Notes under the pieces: generated by a model
Databases searched by the model: none
What the model saw: the letters and a program-made list of their open reading frames with translations, nothing else
Told to the model about the DNA's origin: nothing
Position numbers and translations under genes: made by a program
Assembly: GCF_037042905.1 (NCBI RefSeq)
Contig: NC_087252.1
Span: 6,760,001-6,824,000 of the forward strand
Length of the DNA stretch: 64,000 nt
Direction: 5' to 3'
Source of the DNA: Lytechinus pictus
Taxonomy: Eukaryota
Shown: positions 60,931 through 62,927 of the stretch, one piece after another
How the letters are laid out: every line of letters starts with the position of its first letter
Position numbering within the stretch: the stretch's first letter is position 1

Positions 60931-62117
60931 CTGTGTATACACAAAAACGTGTAACTTTACTCATAAACAGGTGTACAGTTTTGACACTATAAAGACACAC
61001 CAAATGAGTAAAGTTTACTCATCAAATTCAGTTTCTTCTGTATTACTCATCTTGTGAGTTCCCGATGTAATGCAGATAAGTGAGTGTTCGCGATTGACAC
61101 TATAATGACACACTGGTGAGTATTATTAGTGATTTTTTTCTTAAAAATACTCATGATTGTGAATATTATTTACATACGATTACGAGTGAATAAACTAACA
61201 CAATCATGAGTATTTTGAAGAACACTCAAGAAAATAAACAAAATGAACAAATCTTTTATCATCTTTATTGTTAAAACTGCTCCAACGACTGAGCCTTTTT
61301 ATTGTTTACTTAAAATTTACAAAGGTAACAACAACAACTGGCAAGTGTGCAGCAAATATGTTTGAAAACAACAATCAAAACAACTATAACGACTTGGCAA
61401 AGGTTTCATCAAAGTTAAATGCAGGGATGTCAGGAAAGGAATTTCACGATAATGCCGTTAATATTAATAACAACAGCACATTTAAGTAAAATTTCCATAA
61501 TAAAAACGTAAACATAAAACAAACTTACCGGTGAAGACTAAATACTTTAGTCAAACTCTGACTCCATTGCATGCATGCAGCCGATCTTTGCTCTCGCATG
61601 ATCGCGTGCATGACAGCAAGTGGCTGTTTAGACCAAAAGCTTCAGTTTCTGTATTTTGGTTGTTCCGCTGAACTGCGTTGGCTCTACTCACCAATACATA
61701 GACTGAAGGGTTCTTGGCCCGTACGTACAGCCAACGTTTTAGCAGTAACATTAGATCTAACATTCGGTGGAAACCCGATTTTGTGATCGTTTTTATGTAC
61801 ATACAATGTCAGATTGTAAAAAAGAAAGTACATTCAAACTTACGAGAAAATATATAAAACTCAGAAATATGGTACCTCAGACCGCAGTTACTGCTAATTC
61901 CTTTCAAATGATGATCGAAAAATAGTCATCTTCGATACTTTCGTTGGTCAACGTAAGTTGCCATCTTGGATGACGTCATCATCCTTACAGACGTATTTAC
62001 CAGTCGCTATATATCGCGATTTGTGCCGCTGGTTTGCGCTTGTAGATTTGCAAGCGTTAGGAACTTGTCGCTCGCATTGATTGGCCAGGATATCGAAAAT
62101 TTAATCGGAAAGCCTTG

Positions 62118-62310
62118 AGTGTGTGTGTGTGTGTGTGTATTTGAGTTTTGTCAGACGTGTATCAATCAGATATGATTATTTACGTCTGGGACCGACCTTT
62201 AACGTCACCATCCGAAAGACGTGACCGGGGCTCGAACCTCGAACCTCTGCATCAATTTGTAACTTCCCCACATAGCTTGGATTACAGGCGCACGCCACAA
62301 CGCCCAGTTG
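62118..62310 (-). mobile_element. SINE-like unit with 7SL(Alu-domain)-like head, copy 1
   Basis: Minus strand ACTGGGCGTTGTGGCGTGCGCCTGTAATCCAAGCTA…GGTTCGAGCCC…TCGGATGGTGACGTTAAAGGTCGGTCCC…(CA)n. Confidence 0.75.
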
Positions 62311-62323
62311 TGAAGTGCAAGTA

Positions 62324-62507
62324 GTGTGTGTGTGTATTTGAGTTTTGTCAGACGTGTATCAATCAGATATGATTATTTACGTCTGGGACCGACCTTTAAC
62401 GTCACCATCCGAAAGACGTGACCAGGGCTCGAACCTCGAGCCTCTGCATCAATTTGTAACTTCCCCGCATAGCTTGGATTACAGGCGCACGCCACAACGC
62501 CCAGTTG
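62324..62507 (-). mobile_element. SINE-like unit with 7SL(Alu-domain)-like head, copy 2
   Basis: Nearly identical to 62118-62310 (a few substitutions), same orientation. Confidence 0.75.
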
Positions 62508-62927
62508 ATAAAAGCACAACTCGTTGAACGTAGAGGGCAGCAACACACGGCTGCCATTTTTTCCTCTCCGGCAGAAAATTAAAAAAATAAGGAATAAATC
62601 ATCGGTAATGTACATTTTCGATATTTTCTTAGAACTCATATAGTATCAAAAGAAAGATTAGAGTCTAACGAAAATAGTGGGCCTTCGTTCAAGATAATAT
62701 AATGTCATTTAGAATTAACAAAAAAAATCTGGACAAAACCCGGTCGCCCGAATTGCTGACCTGATTACACATGCAGGCTCGCACTAACACACTGCCGTCG
62801 GTGAATGGGGATTAAAGTAAAATGTCAGAAATTGTTAAATAAATCCTCAGAAACGACGGTTATTCCTGTCCAGTGGCTGTTAAACTAAGTTTCGTTGCAC
62901 GTGTTATACACGGCTGGTGCGGCACGG

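Follow-up and report, generated by a model that had tools for sequence, protein, structure and literature searches.

SINEs derived from 7SL RNA have been reported from supraprimates, hagfish and a shrew mole, all of them formed through a central deletion of ~183 nt (PMC13023118). Before the shrew mole, according to that paper, none had been reported beyond supraprimates and hagfish. The 7SL regions common to the supraprimate SINE1 elements are 1-63, 76-83 and 267-299, and the A and B boxes of 7SL lie at 6-15 and 76-86 (PMC7245038). The hagfish element SINE1-1_EBu (Eptatretus burgeri) keeps 96 nt from the 5' end of 7SL and ~44 nt from the 3' end (PMC7245038). A 46-nt 5' Alu domain is reported to be needed for Alu retrotransposition, to promote it, and to associate with SRP9/14 (PMC12199147). 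Under the SINEBase definition, a SINE must be 60% or more identical to tRNA, 5S or 7SL across a stretch of 60 nt or longer (PMC3531059).

The domains given for echinoderm SINEs in Table 1 of PMC5804259 are CORE, Nin, Deu, Inv and Meta, with V unlisted there; the Deu domain measures 70-330 bp, and the sea-urchin element SINE2-3_SP is a DeuSINE (PMC4824008, PMC5804259). Known sea-urchin SINEs are listed with CR1/L2 partners in the table of PMC3747384, and the sea-urchin elements of PMC336326 and PMC327049 were later classed as tRNA-derived CORE-SINEs. None of the papers found by literature searches, judged mostly by titles and the openings of abstracts, described an invertebrate SINE with a 7SL head.

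The DNA analysed here is a 64,000-nt stretch, "the window", which corresponds to C8:6760001-6824000 in an assembly that comprises 368 contigs and 811.7 Mb. On C13 this assembly carries a bindin gene (E 1.5e-67, 236.7 bits), with no match in 14 control genomes; since bindin is a marker of echinoids, the host is taken to be a sea urchin, in agreement with the echinoderm suspected by the first-pass annotation from the letters alone. Judged from its sequence, the element described below is a real and well-supported 7SL-headed SINE in this sea urchin. It is a mosaic of 7SL nt 1-47, a tRNA-like T arm with a B box, a short Deu/Nin-type motif, a 3' stem-loop, and (CA)n.

The element pair and its parts

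On the minus strand of the window, one unit occupies 62119-62505 as two direct copies, called copy 1 and copy 2. TRF gives a period of 197 bp with 1.9 copies and 98% matches at 62127-62507, and the copies differ at three of 176 aligned positions, all C/T. The period and the copy boundaries bear out the two direct minus-strand copies of ~190 bp seen by the first-pass annotation, and the tail that it had noted is present, a (CA)n of 12 nt in copy 1 and 20 nt in copy 2. The UGUNR motif and the Pol III B box named with them are also there in both copies, the former as UGUAAU and the latter as the sequence GGTTCGAGCCC.

Copy 1 (62324-62505), which lies upstream in the sense of the element, is 182 nt long including its (CA)n (62324-62335), and matches family copies at 98%. 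Its 47-nt head (62459-62505), assigned to 7SL through Rfam and the host 7SL genes, comprises Alu-domain helices 2, 3 and 4 and holds an A-box-like stretch at 62492-62501 and UGUAAU at 62478-62483. The tRNA-type B box at 62425-62435 lies in a T-arm-like hairpin and is preceded by a degenerate 7-nt repeat of its own first half; the box is read directly, and its function as a promoter is putative. The Deu/Nin-like motif (GTCACG..GGTCCC; 62385-62422) matches a native DeuSINE at 21 of 24 positions. The 3' tail (62336-62385), assigned from the fold of the copy 2 tail, consists of a stem-loop (CAGACGT..ACGTCTG; 62349-62385) and a short unique end. A 15-nt spacer (62309-62323), which matches either outer flank poorly, separates this tail from the head of copy 2.

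Copy 2 (62119-62308), the downstream one, measures 190 nt including its (CA)n (62119-62138). The 47-nt head (62262-62308) is matched by positions 1-44 of the Rfam Metazoa_SRP model and has UGUAAU at 62281-62286. At 62228-62245 a duplicated GGTTCGA leads into the B box (GGTTCGAGGTTCGAGCCC), the box itself being at 62228-62238; both single and duplicated forms exist in the family. The Deu/Nin-like motif, assigned by sequence likeness, is at 62188-62225, and the 3' stem-loop, assigned by its fold, at 62152-62188. A segment TCGGATGGTGACGTTAAAGGTCGGTCCC is present in both copies. At window position 62227, RNA reads carry the other base in 154 of 160 and 145 of 149 cases (run X23), so the CCCCGG of copy 2 is a rare or private variant of the CCCTGG of the family.

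Other features lie near the pair. The 21-nt motif GTGTTGCTGCCCTCTACGTTC at 62526-62546 (minus strand) stands 20-40 nt upstream of SINE copies at three loci (the window, L024 and L100), and L091 and L125 contain less exact versions of it. The segment 62944-63397 consists of a tandem repeat with a unit of 21 bp (21.4 copies at 82%), and the ORFs listed there are probably an effect of it. The stretch directly 3' of the pair (61940-62030), which contains the palindrome TGACGTCA, has a word depth of up to ~85000 in the contigs of run X8 and a depth of just 2-6 in raw RNA reads, and may be another repeat.

The 7SL-derived head

At gathering thresholds, Rfam has no match within the window. A permissive scan of 651 bases (62000-62650) against all 4227 families, with E up to 10, gave seven rows. 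Metazoa_SRP holds the top two, with scores of 30.9 and 29.6 bits (E 3e-6 and 8e-6); they cover model positions 1-44, score under the gathering score of 70, and span 62411-62505 for copy 1 and 62262-62308 for copy 2. The next row is the Alu-derived mir-1268. Neither tRNA nor 5S appears among the seven rows, and ARAGORN found no tRNA. The resemblance to 7SL thus exceeds chance: the 7SL-like 5' end proposed earlier has the metazoan SRP model as its best family, at subthreshold scores, and tRNA and 5S, the small RNAs named at the time as possible better matches, do not outdo it.

Applied to the whole genome, the Rfam SRP model detects seven full 7SL genes at 272-283 bits, of which C10 and C1 have three each and C12 has one. 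Aligned to the first 46 nt of these genes, as had been suggested, the 47-nt head matches at 40-42 of 47 positions, and its first 31 nt are identical, ungapped, to the C12 gene, L037. The head and L037 also share the A..GU closing of helix 2, at which the other six genes differ. L037 (C12:4895279-4895577) is a divergent 7SL gene, at 272 bits, that has in common with the head the base at nt 3 together with the matching change on the opposite strand of helix 2. By these matches the head was taken from the host's own 7SL RNA; L037 may represent the source gene type, or its likeness to the head may come from conversion. Because the head matches the host's own genes, its origin is independent of the vertebrate 7SL SINEs, and the independently arisen chimeric SINE put forward in the first-pass annotation stands.

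The part kept is 7SL nt 1-47 only, with no 3' part of 7SL. Past nt 47, the best local score of the SINE against 7SL is 15, the mean of shuffled sequences is 15.6, and 318 of 500 shuffles reach the observed score. A global Rfam alignment placed a 3' 7SL end on the element; this pairing was rejected because nt 48-172 score like shuffles. The head contains the position of the A box at nt 5-14, the turn UGUAAU at nt 23-28, and helices 2-4. Its minimum free energy fold shows helix 3 and helix 4 with a stability no greater than that of shuffles (z -0.3), so the structure is argued from homology and not from energy. In the young subfamily, U replaces one loop C of helix 4.

The element thus has the 7SL-derived 5' head of a SINE1 and lacks the pair of 5' and 3' 7SL ends, the whole Alu domain, that also marks that class. 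Its likeness to 7SL stops at nt 47, short of the 60 nt over which SINEBase asks for identity, and this rule may explain how such a head could escape notice.

The low Rfam scores, under the gathering score, and the tRNA type of the B box could suggest that the head resembles 7SL by chance or is really derived from tRNA or 5S, or that the copies are plain 7SL retro-pseudogene pieces. This can practically be dismissed, given the 31 nt identical to a host 7SL gene, a junction to non-7SL sequence that is identical in 825 copies, the lack of any tRNA in ARAGORN, and an Rfam list that, up to E 10, includes neither tRNA nor 5S.

Two observations concern the 7SL genes themselves. At the clustered genes L031, L035 and L036 (C10:7911947-7920824), an older (80-90%) SINE copy ends ~34 bp upstream of each 7SL start. 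A box of the GGTTCGAGTC type lies 20-50 nt behind the terminator in most 7SL genes.

B box and body

The B box occupies nt 71-81 of the element, is of the tRNA type, and appears to sit in a T-arm-like hairpin. The segment behind it had been compared with the V-SINE core, and this part of the first-pass annotation has to be given up. The V-domains of BivaV-SINE1-3, printed in supplementary file 2 of PMC4824008, have no counterpart in the SINE when compared by eye, and the supposed "V core" motif is located where the Deu part of BivaMD-SINE1 begins, with ~30 of 42 matches by eye (PMC4824008). A native tRNA-headed DeuSINE, L254, matches the SINE over a 24-nt stretch at 21 positions, a score that none of 1000 shuffles reaches. 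The shared motif, CGTC.TTCGGAT.G.GACGTTAAA, is the start of the Deu/Nin domain. The remainder of the Deu domain is absent from the SINE, and the bivalve-type Deu continuation has no match in the genome. Since the V-domains differ, L254 and BivaMD-SINE1 share the motif, and V is unlisted for echinoderms, the body is best read as a short Deu/Nin-like fragment and not as a V-domain.

Two native tRNA-headed SINEs were met with in the genome. L254 (C2:26683077) has a long Deu-type body; L054 (C14:23275833) is like the printed MetaSINE heads and the start of the Meta domain.

A dispersed family

When copy 2 was searched against the genome as DNA, 1791 candidates came up at first look, and the 43 matches scored among them are 91-100% identical and lie on many contigs. 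The 26-nt junction of head and body has 825 exact matches in the 812-Mb genome (423 forward, 402 reverse), and its reversed control does not occur at all. In the fetched loci, near-full-length copies (128 HSPs) are 77.6-100% identical to copy 2. The lower identities are partly due to a 7-nt indel that splits two subfamilies, with single or doubled GGTTCGA; both window copies belong with the longer form, which copy 2 has intact and copy 1 in a degenerate state. The unit is ~172 nt long plus its tail, and diverged copies of the family retain the head and have a different tail end.

The copies bear the signs of retroposition. Target-site duplications around them vary between 4 and 13 bp; they measure, for instance, 13 bp at L038, where one position is mismatched, 11 bp at L022, 10 bp at L075, 7 bp at L003, and 6 bp at both L018 and L024. 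Truncation at the 5' end is seen in 48 HSPs, at many different points. The element starts with (A)ACTGGGCG in 63 distinct 5' flanks, chosen irrespective of flank sequence. Variable duplications, 5' truncation and a fixed start characterise target-primed reverse transcription carried out by a LINE enzyme. The family is a young, abundant and dispersed SINE, less than 1 kb long, interspersed, and in more than the 100 copies that SINEBase asks for; the dispersed copies and target duplications that the first-pass annotation had wanted looked for are there, as at least 825 junctions and as duplications of 4-13 bp.

Several variants and interruptions were seen among the copies. The B-box variants GGTTCGAATCC, GGTTCGATCCC and GGTTCGAACCC occur among 92 genome places, and GGTTCGAATCC recurs often enough for a subfamily. 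Two MITE families with terminal inverted repeats and a 3-bp CTG duplication, which we take to be Harbinger-like, lie inside at least eight SINE copies (L119-L121, L123-L126 and L128, and also L071 and L095). They sit at the same CTG just 3' of the SINE B box, in both orientations, and this site looks like a hot spot of MITE insertion. Minisatellite units of ~110 bp carry SINE copies that differ in 5' truncation and have the same 3' junction (L060, L062, L090, L103 and L107-L109); these could be the result of one nick site used repeatedly or of one insertion spread with the repeat.

The head-to-tail arrangement

Pairs like that in the window recur. Among ~102 distinct head-bearing copies, in a non-random sample of loci, there are six independent head-to-tail arrays, with spacers of 0, 0, 2, 3, 5 and 15 nt, and at C2:17634276-17634648 there is a head-to-tail trimer whose three junctions are 171 and 176 bp apart. 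By rough arithmetic, a few thousand copies in 812 Mb would give less than one chance pair. The window pair has no clear target duplication of its own.

The pair in the window most likely came about when a second element inserted within the first copy's (CA)n tail or adjacent to it; this reading is favoured because the spacer matches neither flank well and no duplication brackets the pair. The "tandem" of the first-pass annotation accordingly holds as a description of the arrangement, a 197-bp period at 98%, and not as a dimeric element, which is unlikely, two insertions being the likeliest origin.

Two other origins were weighed. The first, a single insertion later doubled on the spot by unequal crossing-over or replication slippage, would account for the one TRF period at 98% and for the mere three positions at which the units differ. 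It would not account for a spacer that agrees with the 5' flank of copy 1 at only ~7 of the last 11 positions, and does not fit the 3' flank of copy 2 any more closely, when the units themselves are 98% alike, for the unequal tails of 12 and 20 nt, or for the pairs elsewhere with spacers of 0, 0, 2, 3 and 5 nt, and we regard it as improbable. The second origin, still more improbable, is a dimeric master mobilised in one piece, in the manner of Alu and Urop. Pairs do recur, and one type, in which 2 nt separate the copies, occurs at L039, L140, L147 and L154. These four, however, sit in a larger repeat, with at least 326 nt of shared upstream flank at 97-99%, and are thus copies of that repeat; its paralogue L040 holds a monomer. 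Spacers also vary among the independent pairs, and a duplication bracketing the window pair, as one unit inserted at once, is missing. A second insertion therefore remains the preferred origin.

The larger repeat, which occurs on several contigs, carries a SINE pair or a monomer at the same site in L039, L040, L140, L144, L147 and L154. L004, L022 and L139 share their flanks and 3' junction and differ in the 5' junction.

Tail and candidate LINE partners

The last 54 nt before the (CA)n, taken from copy 2, form a hairpin in two steps (-13.0 kcal/mol; z -4.9). Tail hairpins of this sort are the kind of structure that stringent LINEs recognise. A LINE with the same tail was sought with six patterns that include part of the tail and exclude the upstream part of the SINE. 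These hit 10, 15, 32, 57, 2 and 3 places, and among the places examined (25 of the 57 in one search and 30 of the 32 in another) none was a LINE; they were SINE copies truncated at the 5' end, mutated, or split by MITEs. A search with RVT_1 (Pfam), in which 150 of 12239 candidates were scored and 30 loci and 20 downstream stretches of 5 kb were compared, gave no tail likeness, and searches with the tail of an old copy and with the old-type tail end returned SINE copies only. The sampled LINE families end in poly(A) or in other microsatellites. Two apparent candidates were set aside: an (AC)n run after a 1008-aa LINE ORF is internal to the 3' UTR of that LINE, and a diverged look-alike behind a LINE, at L196, is an old SINE copy with an insertion.

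A sibling with a tRNA head was likewise looked for. One search gave 18 places, which are 14 mutated copies of the family, one old copy and three unrelated tRNA-type elements; all 92 places of a further pattern are B-box variants of the 7SL-headed family. An apparent second family with a different 5' part proved to be SINE copies split by MITEs, and an apparent 5' leader consisted of paralogous flanks, retrieved through 12 nt of spacer in the query.

RNA and SRP proteins

In two raw RNA runs, the SINE body has a depth of ~150-380 per mate direction and the unique flank one of 0-6. The two directions are covered to a similar extent (382 and 358 in one run, 234 and 299 in the other), and no pile-up of read starts or ends occurs on the body in these two runs. 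Run X15 has 55 pieces that match the body. The SINE sequence thus occurs in RNA from many loci; the reads are without defined ends, and a Pol III transcript is putative. As for the proteins that would bind it, an SRP14 exon is present in the genome (30.6 bits), and SRP9 has no Pfam match there, which is weak as evidence for absence, the exons being short.

A model for mobilization

The explanation that we favour, and consider probable as a whole, is that of a dispersed mosaic SINE headed by host 7SL, spread through putative Pol III, SRP9/14 and LINE steps, with the pair formed by a second insertion. The mosaic would have arisen by a template switch from the RNA of an older tRNA-type SINE onto 7SL RNA, an origin that we infer by analogy with the hagfish element, since the tRNA-headed sibling was not found. 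The A and B boxes would act as an internal Pol III promoter. The head would fold as the 5' Alu subdomain and bind SRP9/14, which would bring the SINE RNA to ribosomes producing LINE protein, as proposed for Alu, and the stem-loop and (CA)n tail would be the recognition target of the partner LINE. In the window, the (CA)n end of an incoming RNA would have paired with a nicked (TG)n strand at the tail of the other copy.

The head as kept, 47 nt, equals the published 46-nt 5' Alu domain within one base, and recruitment of SRP9/14 is made more plausible by the properties of that domain. The 7SL piece might, on the other hand, furnish a Pol III A box, a start site and a stable 5' hairpin only, with no part for SRP9/14 in the spread. 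Consistent with so limited a role, the A-box position of 7SL is retained (box positions from PMC7245038), the 3' Alu subdomain is missing, the young subfamily lacks one loop C of helix 4, and the known sea-urchin SINE partners are CR1/L2 types, which recognise 3' tails (PMC3747384). We think such a role rather unlikely on three grounds: i) the 47 nt end where helix 2 closes and equal the SRP9/14-binding unit of 46 nt (PMC12199147); ii) a tRNA head also provides an A box, so that the need for a promoter alone fails to explain the swap; and iii) the young subfamily retains nt 1-30 of the head just as the host gene has them. A SINE that would dock through SRP9/14, and so likely uses the Alu trick in an invertebrate, is the reading retained.

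The wider proposal, that an invertebrate SINE has kept the 47-nt 5' Alu subdomain together with a tRNA-type B box and a tail for a LINE other than L1, and that SRP9/14 docking may be a portable module, is tentative, and we hold it more doubtful than not. If it is true, docking on ribosomes through SRP9/14 helps any SINE to capture a LINE reverse transcriptase, beyond mammals and L1. A fourth, invertebrate origin of 7SL SINEs, with the different build of a 5' subdomain and a foreign B box, would show that the part of 7SL useful to a SINE is the small piece that binds SRP9/14, in agreement with the 46-nt domain mapped in human cells. The family would also lend itself, as a natural experiment, to testing whether SINEs that rely on LINEs other than L1 gain from docking on ribosomes. 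Short 7SL heads, moreover, can slip past the usual 60-nt rule of classification.

Comparison with known systems

The closest described system is the hagfish SINE1-1_EBu, which likewise has a head from its host's own 7SL in a chimera with an older SINE lineage, and is a young family of a few thousand copies with a microsatellite tail and an expected partner other than L1 (PMC7245038). It differs in having a whole Alu domain, both 7SL promoter boxes and a known RTE partner (PMC7245038), whereas the sea-urchin SINE has 47 nt of the 5' end only, a tRNA-like B box, and a partner that was not found. Alu, FLAM and B1 of Euarchontoglires and Urop of the shrew mole share with it a 7SL head with an A box and the SRP9/14-binding 5' subdomain (PMC7245038, PMC13023118), and the head-to-tail arrangement of the sea-urchin pair recalls the dimers of Alu and Urop. 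These elements, however, result from the ~183-nt central deletion, are all 7SL, end in an A-rich tail and are moved by L1 (PMC7245038, PMC13023118); in the sea-urchin SINE a 3' 7SL part is missing, the body is foreign, the tail is made of a stem-loop and (CA)n, and the pairs seem to stem from separate insertions. The minimal 5' Alu domain of 46 nt studied in HeLa cells is the same part of 7SL at nearly equal length, but it is an engineered human construct driven by L1 ORF2p, and the sea-urchin head is known from sequence (PMC12199147).

As to the rest of the element, DeuSINEs such as SINE2-3_SP and the native L254 have in common with it the motif at the start of the Deu/Nin domain. They carry a tRNA head and the Deu domain at its usual length, of which the sea-urchin SINE has at most ~40 nt. 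The Tu-type SINEs of tree shrews, GarnAlu and the 5S/tRNA composites resemble it in drawing on two small-RNA sources and in being explained by template switching (PMC7245038, PMC4824008). Tu-type elements and GarnAlu are, however, fusions of whole 7SL- and tRNA-derived SINEs, and the composites involve 5S (PMC7245038, PMC4824008), whereas the sea-urchin SINE combines a 7SL A-box half and a tRNA-like B-box half within one putative promoter.
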